Made by a program: the position numbers and the translations under genes. A stretch of 37,415 nucleotides of DNA from an uncultured Rhodospirillaceae bacterium (GTDB taxonomy: Bacteria; Pseudomonadota; Alphaproteobacteria; RF32; CAG-239). Positions within the stretch are counted from its first letter, which is position 1. Each line of letters opens with the position of its first letter. The notes under the pieces are model-generated. The model was not told where the DNA came from, did not search any database, and saw nothing but the letters and a program-made list of their open reading frames with translations. Below are positions 2,032 through 13,719 of the stretch, one piece after another. The stretch covers positions 1 to 37,415 of the forward strand of contig ONLJ01000012.1 of assembly GCA_900318605.1 (NCBI GenBank), in the 5' to 3' direction.

Positions 2032-2735
2032 TGCGTGAAATTTGTTTTGATACTGAAACAACGGGTTTTAATCCATATACCGGCGACCGTTTGGTTGAGA
2101 TTGGCGCCGTAGAAATAATAAATAAAAAAAGAACAGGAAAAGTTTTTCATAAATATATAAATCCTGAAAGAGATGTTCCCGAATCGGCAGTTAATGTTCA
2201 TGGTATAACCAATGAATTTCTGGCAGACAAACCGGTTTTCAGCGAAATTGCTCAAGAATGGATAGATTTTGTCGGTGATGATAATTTAATTGCTCATAAT
2301 GCCATAGATTTTGATATGAAATTTATAAATTATGAATTAAAAAAAGCCGGATATAATGAATATGACAGTGACAGATTTATAGATACTCTCATAATAGCAA
2401 GAAATATGTTTCCCGGTGCGAGAAACAGCTTAGATGCTCTTTGTAAAAGATTTAATATCGACAACTCCGCTCGTACGGTTCACGGAGCTTTATTGGATGC
2501 CGAATTATTGGCTGATGTATATTTACAACTTTCCGGCGGTGATGAACCGAGTATAAATTTCAATAAAACAGATAATAATATTGTTATTGGCGGAGAAATT
2601 ATTTTCGGCAGTGAAAAAATACTGACACCGCGGGATTTCAATATCAGTGAGAAAGAAAATCAAGCGCATATTGAATTTATGGAAAAACACTTAAAAACTC
2701 CTATCTGGCTCAGAGAGAATAAAAAAGATGATTGA
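2031..2735 (+). CDS. dnaQ: DNA polymerase III epsilon subunit
   Basis: DEDDh exonuclease motifs FDTETTG, LIAHNAIDFD, HGALLDAELLADVY. Confidence 0.97.
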   Translation: MREICFDTETTGFNPYTGDRLVEIGAVEIINKKRTGKVFHKYINPERDVPESAVNVHGITNEFLADKPVFSEIAQEWIDFVGDDNLIAHNAIDFDMKFINYELKKAGYNEYDSDRFIDTLIIARNMFPGARNSLDALCKRFNIDNSARTVHGALLDAELLADVYLQLSGGDEPSINFNKTDNNIVIGGEIIFGSEKILTPRDFNISEKENQAHIEFMEKHLKTPIWLRENKKDD

Positions 2736-4002
2736 ATATCTGAAATACATATATAAAACATATATAAATCGTACGATGCTTAAAATGTTGGCACTTGGTT
2801 TTTCGAGTGGTTTTCCTTTTTTATTGACATTCGGAACTTTAACATATTGGTTCAAGGAAGCAGGATTAGCAATAGCTTTAATCGGCGGATTTTCACTTGT
2901 TAAAATTCCATATTCCTTAAAATGGCTATGGTCGCCGGCAATAGATAATATAAAAATACCGGTTCTTTATAAGATAGGTCGTCGCCGTTCTTGGGGAATC
3001 ATAATTCAAATACTTTTGTTTATTTCGATATTTTCACTTTCGTGTTTTAATCCGGCTCAAAAAACTTCATTGATGGCTTTTTTAGCGGTATTAACAGCAT
3101 TTTTATCAGCATCTCAAGACATAGTTTTGGATGCTTACAGAGTTGAATGTTTTGAAAAAACTCCTGATAAACAAGCCTCCGGAGTTGCAATTTTTGTTTT
3201 AGGATATCGTTTAGGGTTGATATATTCCGGAGCCGGAGCCTTATATTTAGCTTCTTTTTATGATTGGAATACATCTTATAAAATAATGGCATGCGGTGTG
3301 TTTGTCGGATTGATAACTTTAATATTTTCATCAGAAGCGGTAAAATATAAATACGAAAAAAAGAAAGTTGATATAAAAGAATTTTTCAATAAATCGGTAA
3401 TAGCACCGTTTAAGGATTTTGTAAAAAATAAAAATTGGGGTTGGATTTTATTGCTTATTTTTACATATCATTTAAGCAACGCATATTTCAATCCGGTAAT
3501 CAATCCTTTTTATGATGATATGGGATTTACCAAGATTGAAGTGGCTAATGTCATGAAACTCTACGGCATGATTGCAGCAATAATGGGCGGTATTGTCGGC
3601 GGTCTTATTATCAATAAAATAGGACTGAGAAACGGATTACTGTATTTCGGAATTTTACAATGTTTATCAACAATGTTGTTTTCAGTGCAAGCAATTTACG
3701 GACATAATATGCCCATGTTTATTTTTGTTGTAACTGTTGAAAACTTTATTTCAGGATTAGCCACTACGGCACTAGTTGCCTACATATCATCTCTTTGTAA
3801 TAAATTATACACGGCAACTCAATATGCTCTTTTATCTTCGGTAATGAGTATATCTCGCGATATTTTTTCGGCAACCAGCGGAATTGTAGCTCAATTTTTA
3901 GGATGGAAATTGTTTTTTGTTTTCAGTGCTATAATGAGTTTACCTAGTATCTTGATAATAATGATTATTTTGAAAAAAAGTGATTGTAAAATAAAAAAAT
4001 AA
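2728..4002 (+). CDS. ampG: AmpG-family muropeptide MFS permease
   Basis: LGFSSGFPF, PYSLKWLWSP, GRRRSW, SASQDIVLDAYR, TATQYALLSS; about 12 hydrophobic segments. Confidence 0.92.
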   Translation: MIEYLKYIYKTYINRTMLKMLALGFSSGFPFLLTFGTLTYWFKEAGLAIALIGGFSLVKIPYSLKWLWSPAIDNIKIPVLYKIGRRRSWGIIIQILLFISIFSLSCFNPAQKTSLMAFLAVLTAFLSASQDIVLDAYRVECFEKTPDKQASGVAIFVLGYRLGLIYSGAGALYLASFYDWNTSYKIMACGVFVGLITLIFSSEAVKYKYEKKKVDIKEFFNKSVIAPFKDFVKNKNWGWILLLIFTYHLSNAYFNPVINPFYDDMGFTKIEVANVMKLYGMIAAIMGGIVGGLIINKIGLRNGLLYFGILQCLSTMLFSVQAIYGHNMPMFIFVVTVENFISGLATTALVAYISSLCNKLYTATQYALLSSVMSISRDIFSATSGIVAQFLGWKLFFVFSAIMSLPSILIIMIILKKSDCKIKK

Positions 4003-9824: not shown

Positions 9825-10871
9825 TTATTTTTTATTTGCTCTGAATGAACGTCCGTTTACGATTCCGTTGAGAATGATATTTTCCTTTTCATATTTATGC
9901 GGATTTGGTAAAATTATTCGGTTAGGTTCATCTTTTTCAAAATAATGAGAGAGATAATCGGTTTTTAATTTTTTCTCCAAAAAAGAGAAGCCATAAACAT
10001 CAAAATCTATTCCCCACTTATATAAGGTATAAATAACAGCAAAACCGGTAGATGGAAAAATTTTATAAATATATCCGATTTCTTTATAAGCAACAGGATC
10101 AAGTTCACTGTAAGGAATTTTTCTCTCAATCATATTCCGATAAAAAATATCCAAATGATCATCAGTAAGCACCGGTATTTCATTATAATTAACAGCAACC
10201 GCTGCGTATAAATATTCATGATTTAAAGTTTTATCTTCAACAGCCTTGTCGCCGAAACCATGAATCCAGACGTCGGTTTTTTTGCCGTAATCCTTCTCAT
10301 AATTTTCGGTTCGATAATTATTCATTCTGATTACTATATCATGCGAATCTATTTCTTCACCTGAGTTTTTACCTATTTCAAAATCAGAATTTCCGACAAC
10401 TGCTACGGTCTTTCCTTTCAAAAGATTGTATAAAGTTTTATCTTTTTTGGCTTCTTCAAACCTTTGAAAAATCTCCGCCGATTTTTTTATTTCCGGAGTT
10501 ATAATACCGATTTTGAGGCAATAGTCTGAAAGTCGGAGATAATACTTAAATTTATTCAAAGCTATATTGCTTTGAGCTAATTTATGCAATATTTTATCTG
10601 CTTTCTTAGTTTGATTTTTATCAAGCAATAGCAAAGAATATTTAATCCAAAAATCTGCTTGAGAAGGATTTACACGTTTCAAAAAAGTTGCCTTATTAAA
10701 TTTTTCAAGCAATGTTTCATTATTTTCATAATGGTAGGAGTATTTTTTTGAAAGTTCTTCTGCAGTTTCATCTGGTACAAAGCTAAAAATGTTATCGTAT
10801 GAAATATAACCGGCTACAATAAAAAGAGAAAACAAAACACAAATTATATAATCTTTGTATTTTTTAAGCAT
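9825..10871 (-). CDS. GT29-family (eukaryote-type) sialyltransferase-like protein with N-terminal membrane anchor
   Basis: Sialylmotif L (VAVVGNS...GEEIDSHDIVIRMN...YEKDYGKKT), S (PSTG...DVYGF), III (HYFE) and VS (HKYEKE); N-terminal hydrophobic helix. Confidence 0.85.
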   Translation of the reverse strand: MLKKYKDYIICVLFSLFIVAGYISYDNIFSFVPDETAEELSKKYSYHYENNETLLEKFNKATFLKRVNPSQADFWIKYSLLLLDKNQTKKADKILHKLAQSNIALNKFKYYLRLSDYCLKIGIITPEIKKSAEIFQRFEEAKKDKTLYNLLKGKTVAVVGNSDFEIGKNSGEEIDSHDIVIRMNNYRTENYEKDYGKKTDVWIHGFGDKAVEDKTLNHEYLYAAVAVNYNEIPVLTDDHLDIFYRNMIERKIPYSELDPVAYKEIGYIYKIFPSTGFAVIYTLYKWGIDFDVYGFSFLEKKLKTDYLSHYFEKDEPNRIILPNPHKYEKENIILNGIVNGRSFRANKK

Positions 10872-12141
10872 ATTTTTTGCTCCTCAGAAGAGTTATTAAA
10901 CATAAAAAGATTGCAACAATCCAAAACAAAGTCCACTCGAAACAATTTTCGCCGGCACCTTCAAACCACCGAGAAAAAGAAATTTTTTCAAACAGTGATA
11001 ATATCCCTCCGGCACAGATTCCGGAGATTACGGCAGCAAATGATTTGCAAACATTGATAACCGAAATAAAAGTTGCAGCATCTTCTTCAGATACATGTCT
11101 TAGTGGTAGATTGTTTAAGGTTAATTTAACCGAGAAACCGGAAAAACCGATTAAAATATTGGCAACAATCAAAAGAACACAAGATAAAATAAAGGAAGTA
11201 TAAATACTTAAAATAAATAGCAAAATACAAATAGAAAAGACCGATAATCCTAAAGTTAAAGTTGTTTTATAATCCTTTCTGTCGGCTACCATCCCCCAGT
11301 ACCTTGATGATAAAATATACGAAAGCTGTGACAGCACCGTTAATAAAATAACAGATGTTGTCGAAAATGATAAATATTTTAACATAAAGGCGGTAAAAAA
11401 TGGTGTGGCGAAACAGGTTGAAAAATTCAACAAACTCATAAAATAAGTTAAATTTCGAATTTTTTCGTTTTTAAAACTTGCATATAATTTTTTATAAAAA
11501 GGAATATTTTCTTTTATAACTACTTTTATATCGTAAACTCTTGTAAAAGTGTAAACACTATACATTCCTACCAAAAACGATAAAGATAATAAGAAAGAAT
11601 AAGCAAAAATAGATTGTTGCGGATAGTTTTTATCAATATAATAAATCAGAACAGCTCCGAAAAGACTGCAAACCATTTGAGCAATCATCATGTATTTCAT
11701 TCTTAATGAGAAAAATTTACCTAAGATTTTTTGCGGAATAATATATTTCATCCACGGATACCATGCTCCGCCGGCAATTCCTCCGCATAAATAGGTAAGG
11801 GAAAAACAAATCAACAGAAGAGGTAATGCGTAAGAAGAATTATTAAAAAAAGCAAGCACTGCTGCTATTAAATAACATTGCCGTGAAATTAGGGAAGAAA
11901 CTATCGACATTTTTCGCGGCGAATATTTTTTATTTAACAAATAAGCGGCAAACAGATGCATTAAACTGCCGACATAGACAATACTTCCGAGAAAACCTAT
12001 TGCGATGTTTCCGGCATTAAACATTAATGCGTAAGCAATTAAAAATGGGCCGGTAGCAAAAGTATTCATTGCTTCGGTTGCAATACCGCCATAAATAACA
12101 TTATGCAAAGATTCGTTTTGATTCGGCTCTTTTTTTTGCAT
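10864..12141 (-). CDS. MFS transporter, substrate unknown
   Basis: About 12 hydrophobic segments in 2x6 arrangement; MFS motif A-like WGMVADRKDYK. Confidence 0.88.
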   Translation of the reverse strand: MQKKEPNQNESLHNVIYGGIATEAMNTFATGPFLIAYALMFNAGNIAIGFLGSIVYVGSLMHLFAAYLLNKKYSPRKMSIVSSLISRQCYLIAAVLAFFNNSSYALPLLLICFSLTYLCGGIAGGAWYPWMKYIIPQKILGKFFSLRMKYMMIAQMVCSLFGAVLIYYIDKNYPQQSIFAYSFLLSLSFLVGMYSVYTFTRVYDIKVVIKENIPFYKKLYASFKNEKIRNLTYFMSLLNFSTCFATPFFTAFMLKYLSFSTTSVILLTVLSQLSYILSSRYWGMVADRKDYKTTLTLGLSVFSICILLFILSIYTSFILSCVLLIVANILIGFSGFSVKLTLNNLPLRHVSEEDAATFISVINVCKSFAAVISGICAGGILSLFEKISFSRWFEGAGENCFEWTLFWIVAIFLCLITLLRSKKYA

Positions 12142-12144
12142 TTT

Positions 12145-13659
12145 TTATTTCCTTTTATAAATGCCTAAATCATTTATCTTTGTATAGTGTTCATCAATCC
12201 AAGCATCATCAACATTCCAATAATCAAAATTAACACTGATTATTTTTGAACGAAGCTGAGGATGTTCTACTAATTTATTTATTATTTTAGCATTCCGTTT
12301 TCCTATCCCTATGTTTTTAAACATAACGATATTTTCCGGCAAGGCGATGGCAGAATCTCTCAAAGGATAAATCAAATAATCCGGTTTTGTTTGTCTTAAA
12401 TACTCATTAAAATCAAAGTAATGATTAGGAGTATAAAGAATATCAATAATAGCAGCATCAAAAAATCCGAACCAATGATAATCAAAAGGTTTCTTGAAAA
12501 TAGCATAAGGATATCTGGTTAAAGGTGCAAAACTGTTTTTTTCCGATATATTATTGTTTATCCAATCGATTGTTTTCAATTCCTTTTGATAAGCAATTCT
12601 ATCCATTTTATCCGGATAGTTGCTTAATATTCCGGCTAAGGTAATCAGTAGAAAACAAAGAGTTGCGAATGTATGCTTAAAAATCTTAACATCAAGGCAA
12701 AATTTTCCTAAATAGATGGATGCTAATATGAAATAAGGAATAGTATAATGGTAGTAAGGAGCAAATAAAATAAGAGAGATAAAACTACAACCAAGCGGAA
12801 CAAAAATAATCATAGATTTAAGAGAAAATGAACAATTTTTTAATATTATCGCAAAAGAAACATAAAGTAAAAAAGTTAAAACACGAGAAATTTTCATCGT
12901 ATTGTCGTAATATTCCGTTAAGTAAGTATTAAAAGTAAAATTATAATAAAACCATTCAAAAAAAATTCCGTTGTAAACAGAATAAATCAGAAACAAAATC
13001 AGAGGTATTGAGCCGATGGTTGCAGATATAAAAAAGTCTTTGAAAAGAAGTTTTCTTTTATAAAGCAAATACAGGTTAACAAGTCCGAATCCGAATATCA
13101 TGAAAATTATTTTTTGCAAAAACAAAAAAGAAACTGAAAGTAAAAAATAACACATCGCCAGCTTAAATATTTTTCTTTCTTCCAAATAGGAATAGAATAA
13201 ATAAATTGCACCTAGAAAGCTCAACATCATAAAAATATCGGGACGAATACTAATGATATCATACCAAATCGGAATTGCAATCAGTAAAATCGTTGAATAA
13301 AGAGCGGCCTTTTTGCCGAATAAAAATTTTTCATTGATTTTATAGCTAAGATAAATACAGGAAAAGTATCCTGCAGTCGCTAAAAACCGAACAAGCGGGA
13401 TAATAATAAGATTACCTTTCAATAAACCGGTAATAGGCGCCAACATAAACCATAAAAGCGGATTATGATGTTCAAAAAAATCTTTGTAAGGAAGAAGACC
13501 TTCATAAACAAAAAAAGAAGCGCTCAAATGTTCGAGCATATCAACTAATACACCATGTGAATAAAAAATATTATACACCGAAAGGCCGGTAAAAATCGCT
13601 AAGAATACAAATAAAATAAAATTAAGATTTTCACTTAAAAAGGTATTTTTCAGTTTCAT
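12145..13659 (-). CDS. GT-C fold membrane glycosyltransferase (ArnT/PMT-like)
   Basis: First loop DMLEH...G.LPYKDFFEHHNPL, IRPD motif, about 12 TM helices and a soluble C-terminal domain. Confidence 0.75.
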   Translation of the reverse strand: MKLKNTFLSENLNFILFVFLAIFTGLSVYNIFYSHGVLVDMLEHLSASFFVYEGLLPYKDFFEHHNPLLWFMLAPITGLLKGNLIIIPLVRFLATAGYFSCIYLSYKINEKFLFGKKAALYSTILLIAIPIWYDIISIRPDIFMMLSFLGAIYLFYSYLEERKIFKLAMCYFLLSVSFLFLQKIIFMIFGFGLVNLYLLYKRKLLFKDFFISATIGSIPLILFLIYSVYNGIFFEWFYYNFTFNTYLTEYYDNTMKISRVLTFLLYVSFAIILKNCSFSLKSMIIFVPLGCSFISLILFAPYYHYTIPYFILASIYLGKFCLDVKIFKHTFATLCFLLITLAGILSNYPDKMDRIAYQKELKTIDWINNNISEKNSFAPLTRYPYAIFKKPFDYHWFGFFDAAIIDILYTPNHYFDFNEYLRQTKPDYLIYPLRDSAIALPENIVMFKNIGIGKRNAKIINKLVEHPQLRSKIISVNFDYWNVDDAWIDEHYTKINDLGIYKRK

Positions 13660-13689
13660 TTATAAGTCCTTACTAAAACACTCTGCGGC

Positions 13690-13719
13690 AATATAAGCGA
13701 AAAAAAATAAAAAAGTCAA
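13690..13719 (-). promoter_or_regulatory. Putative sigma70 promoter of the GT-C/MFS/GT29 operon
   Basis: TTGACT - 18 bp - TATATT upstream of RBS TAAGGA and ATG at 13659. Confidence 0.55.

Follow-up and report, generated by a model that had tools for sequence, protein, structure and literature searches.

A membrane-anchored GT29 protein encoded with an MFS transporter and a GT-C enzyme in an uncultured gut alphaproteobacterium, and its possible role in periplasmic glycosylation

In textbook accounts of bacterial glycosylation, nucleotide-sugar chemistry is confined to the cytoplasm and lipid carriers serve the reactions outside. A stretch of DNA from an uncultured Rhodospirillaceae bacterium (assembly GCA_900318605.1, contig ONLJ01000012.1, positions 1 to 37,415; this whole stretch of 37,415 nucleotides is called the window) raises the question of where a bacterial sialyltransferase-like enzyme does its work and how its activated sugar gets there. 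Three genes on the minus strand are concerned, encoding a glycosyltransferase of the GT-C type (12145..13659, 504 amino acids), a transporter of the major facilitator superfamily (MFS; 10864..12141, 425 amino acids) and a sialyltransferase-like protein of glycosyltransferase family GT29 (9825..10871 including the stop codon, 348 amino acids). An earlier note on this DNA, made from the letters alone, described them as a tightly coupled, AT-rich and Golgi-like glycosylation operon. The spacing of the open reading frames (ORFs), the first two being 3 bp apart (12142-12144) and the last two overlapping by 8 bp (10864-10871), and a GC content of 30.2% agree with this description; taken as a whole, the observation is confirmed and the interpretation is supported in part only. 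The three genes are best explained as an island for envelope glycosylation that is accessory in this ruminant-gut alphaproteobacterium and was acquired laterally. In related bacteria, the MFS family travels with synthetases of nonulosonates activated by cytidine monophosphate (CMP) and with anchored sialyltransferases of unrelated folds.

By profile and by predicted structure, the last gene of the cluster encodes a genuine GT29 protein with intact motifs, and its membership of the family is secure. The Glyco_transf_29 profile of Pfam (PF00777) matches in two stretches with 72 bits, against a cut-off of 23, and the four sialylmotifs described earlier are present in their expected order. Motif L, the CMP-sugar binding region (residues ~149-203; 10263..10427, minus strand, as for all positions in this protein), aligns to residues 93-144 of pig ST3Gal-I with an E value of 1.9e-6. 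Motif S (residues ~272-297; 9981..10058) is the second stretch that aligns to ST3Gal-I and holds the invariant residues G276, D291, Y293 and G294. Motif III, HYFE (residues 309-312; 9936..9947), is placed by sequence, in a segment (303-322) where the predicted local distance difference test (pLDDT) score of the model is below 50. Motif VS, H325...E330 (9882..9899), holds the putative catalytic histidine. Among 18 GT29 homologues G160, G171, E173, D175, H177, D178, R182, N184, D291, Y293, G294 and E330 are invariant, and H325 is retained in at least 90%. The earlier note was also right that the L and S motifs lack cysteines. The only cysteines of the protein are those of the anchor (C11) and the stem (C118), and it does not possess the disulfide that links these motifs in animal GT29 enzymes. 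We treat this bond as a trait of the eukaryotic members, the absence of which is no bar to membership.

The AlphaFold2 model of the protein (pLDDT 82.2, predicted template modelling score (pTM) 0.81) is weak only at residues 303-322 and 342-348. A Foldseek search with this model returned mammalian GT29 enzymes only among the matches listed at E ≤ 1e-3. Superposition on pig ST3Gal-I (2wnb) gave a Z score of 14.2 and a root-mean-square deviation of 4.0 over 198 aligned residues, in keeping with the modified GT-A fold of the family; the top 14 structural entries are all mammalian GT29 enzymes, followed by the Campylobacter GT42 enzymes with Z scores of 9-10. The helical stem announced by the earlier note is real, with modelled helices over residues 34-151. 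This N-terminal domain (residues 31-148; 10428..10781) is similar to the tetratricopeptide repeat (TPR) domains of OGT and PP5 (Z ~5), and it is common to anchor-less GT29 homologues from about residue 70 on. Judged from the model, it looks TPR-like and no mere spacer.

Bacterial GT29 proteins as such are not new. They were reported mainly from alphaproteobacteria (19 of 23 sequences), none being biochemically characterized there as far as the account of these sequences goes (Petit et al. 2018, PMC5811610), and a 2023 review, in its treatment of the subject, repeats the report without functional data. Against this background, the window protein stands out by a signal anchor and by the pairing with an MFS gene. 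The anchor helix (residues 8-25; 10797..10850) is an 18-residue hydrophobic core that follows the start MLKKYKD, with net charges of +2 ahead of it and -5 over the next 15 residues; the AlphaFold2 model has a helix over residues 2-28. A type II orientation (N-in, C-out) is predicted from these properties, which bears out the positive-inside topology proposed in the earlier note, and the same holds for four sister proteins.

Such an anchor is rare among bacterial GT29 proteins and appears to be new. A search of 1.84 billion representatives gave 1665 GT29 matches at E ≤ 1e-3, and in the best 150 of these a single N-terminal helix like that of the window protein was found once, in P0003 from the sister cluster; three others have a polytopic N-terminal domain instead. 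In P0214, P0232 and P0254 the GT29 domain is preceded by a polytopic membrane domain for which 8-11 helices are predicted and which may be flippase-like. GT29 matches came from 13 of 282 other genomes in the order to which the window belongs, and from 2 of the 36 searched in the same genus (G020 with 30% and G017 with 34% identity). No N-terminal helix is predicted in any of the 12 GT29 genes of the order that were examined (11 fetched genes and that of G020, the weak matches of G017 and G185 being left out). When the first 30 residues are removed, the window protein, P0001, P0003, P0004 and P0005 still form one split, with support of 100 in the Shimodaira-Hasegawa-like approximate likelihood ratio test (SH-aLRT), and all five start with a stretch rich in lysine and arginine followed by a hydrophobic core. 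Since this split adjoins soluble forms in a midpoint-rooted tree, the root of which is not established, a single gain of the anchor fits. A different arrangement was seen at L126:5508-8357, where a 949-residue protein combines DUF4422, GT8 and GT29 domains and is encoded beside a UDP-galactopyranose mutase gene; this is a cytoplasmic multi-transferase form.

The transporter is a regular MFS protein (MFS_1, 92.8 bits against a cut-off of 33.4). Its AlphaFold2 model (pLDDT 89, pTM 0.88) has at least 448 matches in the Protein Data Bank (PDB) at E ≤ 1e-3, and the best 50 are all MFS transporters. It does not belong to the SLC35/DMT carriers, MFS_1 being the sole Pfam profile reported, nor to the NanT family as modelled by TIGR00891, since the only NCBIfam match was to TIGR00900 with 33.5 bits against a cut-off of 319.6; TIGR00891 had no match in genome G000 either. 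A sequence search of the PDB with a profile of the family gave one match at chance level (aquaporin Z, E 0.2), and the ESM Atlas returned generic MFS clusters only.

The gene neighbourhoods of the relatives are more informative. In four genomes of the same genus, MFS relatives with 36-39% identity are encoded directly beside PM0188/GT80-like sialyltransferase genes, with CMP-synthetase genes nearby, joined by NeuB genes in two of the genomes. A survey of species-representative genomes gave 49 MFS loci, 35 of them at ≥35% identity. Two of these (L026 and L042, 2.3 kb each) were too short and were left out, so that 33 of the 35 were scanned. A synthetase (PF02348, CSS) and/or a sialyltransferase (PF11477 or PF07922) is encoded within three ORFs of the MFS gene at 26 of the 35 loci, and at 18 of these 26 there is a transferase. 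Where the synthetase is the only partner, a GT80-like transferase was found elsewhere in the genome in all five cases tested. Four unlinked MFS proteins form a separate clade. At 13 more distant loci (L059 and L061-L072, ≤30% identity) no synthetase or transferase was found among the longer neighbouring ORFs that were scanned. A profile of the family matched nine of the 283 genomes of the order, one of which, G069, is itself a row of that profile. PF11477 exceeds its cut-off in six genomes of the order, in all six with the MFS gene on the same contig, and in none of the 274 genomes that lack the MFS; we report this as a pattern and attach no statistic to it, because the genomes are kin spanning three genera. 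Around the 11 anchor-less GT29 genes fetched from the order, no MFS of this type was found among 109 ORFs within ~5 kb, and the neighbourhood of the G020 gene is alike.

The pair of anchored GT29 and MFS proteins itself also seems to extend to other strains. Anchored protein P0004 and MFS protein P0042 (54% identity) come from contigs equal in size (4742 bp) and source, and so do anchored P0005 and MFS protein P0041 (60%), on contigs of 4975 bp. P0041 and P0042 are the two closest relatives of the window MFS, with which they form one clade (support 99). This suggests, indirectly, that the pair recurs beyond this genome. The search for MFS relatives gave none at ~85% identity from the strain of P0001 and P0072. 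The earlier note had proposed that the MFS protein is a carrier for CMP-sugars or CMP. The functional tie between transporter and transferase which that proposal implies is supported by the 26 linked loci, while the carrier role itself is one that we infer.

Some single loci of the family deserve mention. At L021:4983-7150 (G069), a distant member with 27% identity stands beside a gene for a GT11 fucosyltransferase that has a lysine-rich start and a hydrophobic helix; the case hints that the pairing of MFS proteins with anchored transferases may reach beyond CMP-sugars. At L060:3769-4162 a remnant of an MFS gene, matching residues 10-188, lies between genes for CorA and UDP-glucose dehydrogenase, and L024 and L027 have MFS, sialyltransferase and CMP-synthetase genes at the corresponding site. 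Apparently, the module has decayed in the L060 genome. Finally, the records of L025, L029 and L054 are titled as Lactobacillales or Bacteroidaceae bins. They are probably misbinned or mislabelled, because these loci and their MFS proteins group tightly with alphaproteobacterial ones.

Anchors are the rule among the transferases encoded beside the MFS. There are 20 such ORFs, one of which is cut by a contig end, which leaves 19 that can be interpreted. In 17 of these a start rich in lysine and arginine precedes a hydrophobic helix. Another, which is GT52-like, lacks it, and the last is a fusion protein encoded at L051:4783-7011 (plus strand). This ORF of 742 residues, a single assembled sequence, joins a NeuC-type UDP-N-acetylglucosamine (UDP-GlcNAc) 2-epimerase domain to a GT80-like sialyltransferase domain, with the sequence KKPRINRIFR and then a single hydrophobic helix (383-402) at the joint. 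It sits between the NeuB and MFS genes, and a CTP synthase gene follows. Since NeuC uses cytoplasmic UDP-GlcNAc and one spanning helix lies in between, the transferase domain should be on the periplasmic side. With the fusion counted, 18 of the 19 ORFs have an anchor of the outward type. When the five anchored GT29 proteins and the 17 MFS-linked GT80-like ones are taken together, the N-terminal flank is more positive than the C-terminal flank in 19 of 22, with three ties and no reversed case. Eight further GT80-like proteins are encoded elsewhere in MFS-bearing genomes; six pass the hydropathy threshold, and in the remaining two an MLKKYK start is followed by a stretch of lower hydrophobicity. 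L150 and L151 (G074 and G075), which are GT80-like, share these first six residues with the window GT29 protein, their catalytic domains being unrelated. The common start could be due to chance or to a shared anchor module.

These observations can be combined into a mechanism. The anchor would place the catalytic domain of the GT29 protein in the periplasm. A CMP-ulosonic acid of cytoplasmic origin would pass the inner membrane by way of the MFS protein, possibly with CMP moving in the opposite direction, and the GT29 enzyme would use it to cap a periplasmic acceptor. The GT-C enzyme would modify the same acceptor with a sugar borne by a lipid carrier; lipopolysaccharide (LPS) is the likeliest acceptor, and a protein is possible. 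We prefer this periplasmic capping module, in which an anchored GT29 enzyme is fed by an MFS exporter of a CMP-activated sugar, with a confidence that falls somewhat short of even.

Which donor this strain could use can be traced in part. Pfam profiles detected neither NeuB nor a NeuA-type synthetase in its genome bin (1.23 Mb in 123 contigs, 85% complete, 5% contamination), and KdsB is the only CMP-sugar synthetase found; the check for neuA and neuB proposed in the earlier note is thus negative here. The profile PF02348 has two matches, one being KdsB (over the cut-off of TIGR00466) and the other a general NTP-transferase. A tblastn search of the genome with the synthetases, NeuB and GT80 and GT52 proteins of relatives gave no match. 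Since WaaA and KdsB are both encoded, CMP-3-deoxy-D-manno-octulosonate (CMP-Kdo) is made. The donor would then be CMP-Kdo, or a CMP-nonulosonate with a pathway encoded in the 15% of the genome that is missing from the assembly. Use of CMP-Kdo has precedents in the literature, in what is said there of donor choice: the bacterial sialyltransferases Lst and LsgB are able to use it and GT52 sialyltransferases accept it as a donor (PMC8092323), and the plant GT29 protein RCKT1/MGP2 is described as a putative CMP-Kdo transferase of the Golgi (PMC11288761).

Several points weigh against this mechanism. To our knowledge, there are no nucleotide-sugar carriers of the MFS type, and the fold matches of the transporter are mixed (VMAT2, MFSD2A, ferroportin, G6PT, FLVCR1, MdfA, sialin, NupG), giving no pointer to a substrate. 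At seven of the 35 related MFS loci neither a synthetase nor a transferase is encoded in the vicinity, one of these loci being cut by a contig end. The topology of the GT29 protein is predicted solely from hydropathy and charge. Neither NeuB nor a NeuA-type synthetase was found in this incomplete genome, and NeuB is missing in 4 of 14 MFS-bearing genomes tested, two of which, G061 and G018, are 95% and 94% complete. No importers of sialic acid of the TRAP (DctM), sodium-solute symporter (SSS/SSF) or NanT type were found in the five genomes tested (G000, G061, G018, G002 and G072), which makes the MFS protein the obvious candidate for import in genomes without NeuB. As an alternative donor, CMP-Kdo is described as very short-lived, and one group argues, in the discussion of lipo-oligosaccharide (LOS) synthesis, that bacterial LOS sialyltransferases including Lst are cytoplasmic (PMC8092323). 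The GT-C gene adds two more difficulties: no such gene occurs within about three ORFs of the MFS gene in the 33 related loci scanned, and an MFS or sialyltransferase gene is absent from all five examined loci of GT-C relatives.

The missing importers fit a different view of the transporter, in which a NanT-like MFS protein takes up free sialic or other nonulosonic acid, for activation by a synthetase in the cytoplasm and use by the transferase on LPS; no nucleotide sugar would then be carried by the MFS protein. The gut is rich in free sialic acid, the CMP-synthetase is the commonest neighbour of the MFS gene, transporter and synthetase make up the whole local unit at 8 of the 26 linked loci, and G061 and G018 have the MFS, synthetase and transferase yet no NeuB. 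Nevertheless, we regard scavenging as unlikely. The other 10 of the 14 MFS-bearing genomes encode NeuB and thus have their own nonulosonate synthesis, this genome has no synthetase that could activate an imported nonulosonate, and the window MFS falls outside the NanT family model. The pseudaminic acid operons of G002 and G072 even include the MFS gene, which has PseI on one side, the transferase on the other and PseF nearby (PseI and PseF are both over their NCBIfam cut-offs); pseudaminic acid is no host sugar, so that an importer of host sugars would make little sense there. Scavenging also leaves the outward anchors, including that of the NeuC fusion, unexplained. If the transferases are indeed periplasmic, a route out for the CMP-sugar is needed, and the adjacent MFS protein is the sole candidate in view. 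A carrier that recognizes the CMP part would explain how one family can serve different sugars. For these two reasons export is favoured over import, with a degree of belief that is likewise below even.

The predicted location of the transferases could itself be wrong. The GT29 protein may be tethered to the cytoplasmic face of the inner membrane, with the MFS protein exporting a product or by-product or being a hitch-hiking efflux pump. According to the prevailing view, as it is put in part of the literature, assembly and sialylation of the LOS/LPS core are cytoplasmic (PMC8092323). The CMP-sugar pool is cytoplasmic as well, and bacterial GT29 proteins are mostly soluble or fused to cytoplasmic transferase domains (DUF4422-GT8-GT29). 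The N-in charge bias without a reversed case argues against such a tether, as does the fusion protein, in which the NeuC domain and the helix set the transferase outside the cytoplasm. A strict pairing of anchor and MFS across three glycosyltransferase families is hard to reconcile with hitch-hiking, and we consider a cytoplasmic tether somewhat less probable than scavenging. The trio of a transferase, a membrane carrier and a GT-C enzyme also mirrors ArnC/ArnEF/ArnT and GtrB/GtrA/GtrC, which brings up a scheme in which the GT29 protein loads polyprenyl phosphate, the MFS protein flips the lipid-linked sugar and the GT-C enzyme transfers it to LPS or protein. MFS lipid flippases such as LtaA exist, MFSD2A is among the fold matches, GT-C paralogues are abundant in the genus, and a GT2 gene adjoins the closest GT-C relative (G011). 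However, we know of no enzyme of a sialyltransferase family that makes polyprenyl-phosphate sugars, the scheme requires an N-out orientation that is contrary to both the charge bias and the NeuC fusion, and the GT-C gene is absent beside the MFS in the related loci that were scanned. Lipid loading and flipping is therefore quite improbable in our view. Finally, the cluster may have been acquired without a donor pathway and be idle or decaying in this strain, as could be suspected from the lack of a NeuB or NeuA-type gene, the deviating composition, the rarity of GT29 in the genus and the MFS remnant at L060. Against this, none of its three ORFs is disrupted, their catalytic residues are conserved, the arrangement is kept at 95-99% identity in sequencing runs of several studies, relatives of the GT29 and GT-C proteins at 83-87% identity exist elsewhere, the genome is only 85% complete and CMP-Kdo is available. 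Such an orphan state is the least probable of the alternatives.

Returning to export of CMP-sugars into the periplasm, it is useful to compare the proposed module to known systems. Golgi sialylation uses a synthetase, the CMP-sialic acid/CMP antiporter SLC35A1 and type II GT29 enzymes; the likeness lies in cytoplasmic activation, a carrier and a stem-bearing enzyme on the far side. The differences are that the candidate carrier in the window is an MFS protein instead of a DMT/SLC35 protein and that its GT29 protein lacks the L/S disulfide cysteines. Because of these two differences, and because the anchored clade is a small one, nested among soluble bacterial forms in the midpoint-rooted tree, the resemblance looks convergent and not ancestral. 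A second parallel is offered by plant RCKT1/MGP2, as far as it is described (PMC11288761), which is a luminal GT29 protein in an organism without sialic acid and for which CMP-Kdo is thought to be the donor, just as KdsB is the sole CMP-synthetase found here; unlike the window protein, it is eukaryotic and Golgi-resident and has a pectin, rhamnogalacturonan II, as its acceptor. With bacterial LOS sialylation by GT42, GT52 and GT80 enzymes (Lst, LsgB, PmST1), the related MFS loci have in common the CMP-synthetases and the GT80- and GT52-like transferases, but here the transferases have outward-pointing anchors and a dedicated MFS protein. In the Arn and Gtr systems, too, a PMT_2/ArnT-type GT-C enzyme works in the periplasm, and a membrane carrier and another transferase complete the set. 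Unlike these systems, the window cluster has no adjacent GT2 gene for a polyprenyl-phosphate sugar synthase, its MFS protein is not a small carrier of the SMR or GtrA type, and its second transferase is a CMP-dependent GT29 enzyme.

The pairing of an anchored GT29 protein with an MFS protein appears to be undescribed in the literature that was searched, at the level of titles and the beginnings of abstracts, and so does the wider pattern, in which sialyltransferases of unrelated folds with outward anchors are accompanied by this MFS family. A further-reaching proposal is that the MFS family is a bacterial nucleotide-sugar carrier that exports CMP-ulosonic acids (of the Neu/Leg type, pseudaminic acid, perhaps Kdo) for signal-anchored Leloir-type transferases from three or more unrelated families (GT29, GT80-like, possibly a GT11 fucosyltransferase that a more distant member of the MFS family would serve), a Golgi-like arrangement that arose independently in gut alphaproteobacteria. 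We hold this generalization slightly more tentatively than the capping module itself. In that case, the window MFS may be the first carrier of an activated sugar known from bacteria. If the family moves CMP-sugars, Leloir-type sialylation can run in the periplasm, there is a concrete candidate family for the open transport question, and tools for making sialylated products in the periplasm of E. coli come within reach. On the ordinary reading, the cluster would simply add to the accessory islands with which gut commensals decorate their LPS. The locus also bears on the proposal, put forward in the account of bacterial GT29 sequences, that the eukaryotic Golgi GT29 enzymes derive from alphaproteobacteria (Petit et al. 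2018, PMC5811610): an alphaproteobacterial GT29 protein with a eukaryote-like type II layout exists, and the tree suggests that this layout is secondary.

The GT-C protein is the partner with the least certain role. It is ArnT/PMT-like, matches PMT_2 (34.8 bits against a cut-off of 26.1) and has 11 hydrophobic segments followed by a C-terminal soluble domain of ~155 amino acids. The residues D40, E43, H44, D60, E63, H64, H65 and R139-P140-D141 are invariant across 21 homologues; profile, polytopic domain and the conserved acidic residues of the first outer loop (D40, E43, D60 and E63) are those of a GT-C fold. The invariance of these acidic and basic residues makes it look active, as far as an alignment can indicate. 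Enzymes of the PMT_2 type are multi-copy in the genus, occurring in 33 of 49 other genomes with up to five copies. Tandem arrays of three or four were observed, for example at G062:C10:1315-6576 and G008:C99:121583-125826. The closest relative (53% identity, G011) is encoded among GT4, epimerase, GT2 and WavE genes, in what looks like an LPS cluster. Co-occurrence of the three genes in other genomes, which the earlier note put up as a check, was not seen at the related loci examined, the linkage of GT-C to the MFS-GT29 pair being so far unique to this species. That the GT-C enzyme helps to build the acceptor, as proposed above, is deduced from the shared operon alone.

The cluster stands out from its surroundings. 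The genome has 39.4% GC, and of 835 genome windows of 3.8 kb (mean GC content 39.4%, sd 2.3%), only 0.12% are as low as the cluster. Its neighbours are housekeeping genes, with a YmdB phosphoesterase gene upstream and convergent genes for an acylphosphatase and an AsmA-like protein downstream. In the stretches fetched from five relatives, the YmdB gene was not followed by the AsmA, acylphosphatase and RluC-like genes, so that no clean empty site could be defined. The gene order is real and no assembly artefact, since the junctions are bridged at 95-99% identity by Logan contigs that stem from sequencing in three other studies: X4 and X8 span that of GT29 and MFS, and X2, X4 and X8 that of MFS and GT-C. 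The arrangement thus recurs in animal-gut samples. There was no RNA dataset among the Logan runs listed for the cluster. The earlier note gave the cluster its own promoter. A site TTGACT-18-TATATT (13690..13719, minus strand), matching 10 of 12 consensus positions, is indeed present in the 69-bp gap between the YmdB and GT-C genes. Promoter-like sites in the region are not in excess over chance (15 against a mean of 22.4 after shuffling), and the site is therefore taken as a consensus match only.

Two features lie elsewhere in the window. The GC content has its minimum, 19%, at positions 1001-2000, around the gap between an ORF ending at 1030 and the CoaE gene starting at 1453. A second, unrelated MFS gene is located at 2728-4002 on the plus strand; it has matches to two profiles, MFS_1 and that of the acetyl-CoA transporter (Acatn), and may be AmpG-like, since the AmpG muropeptide permease shows this pattern of profiles.

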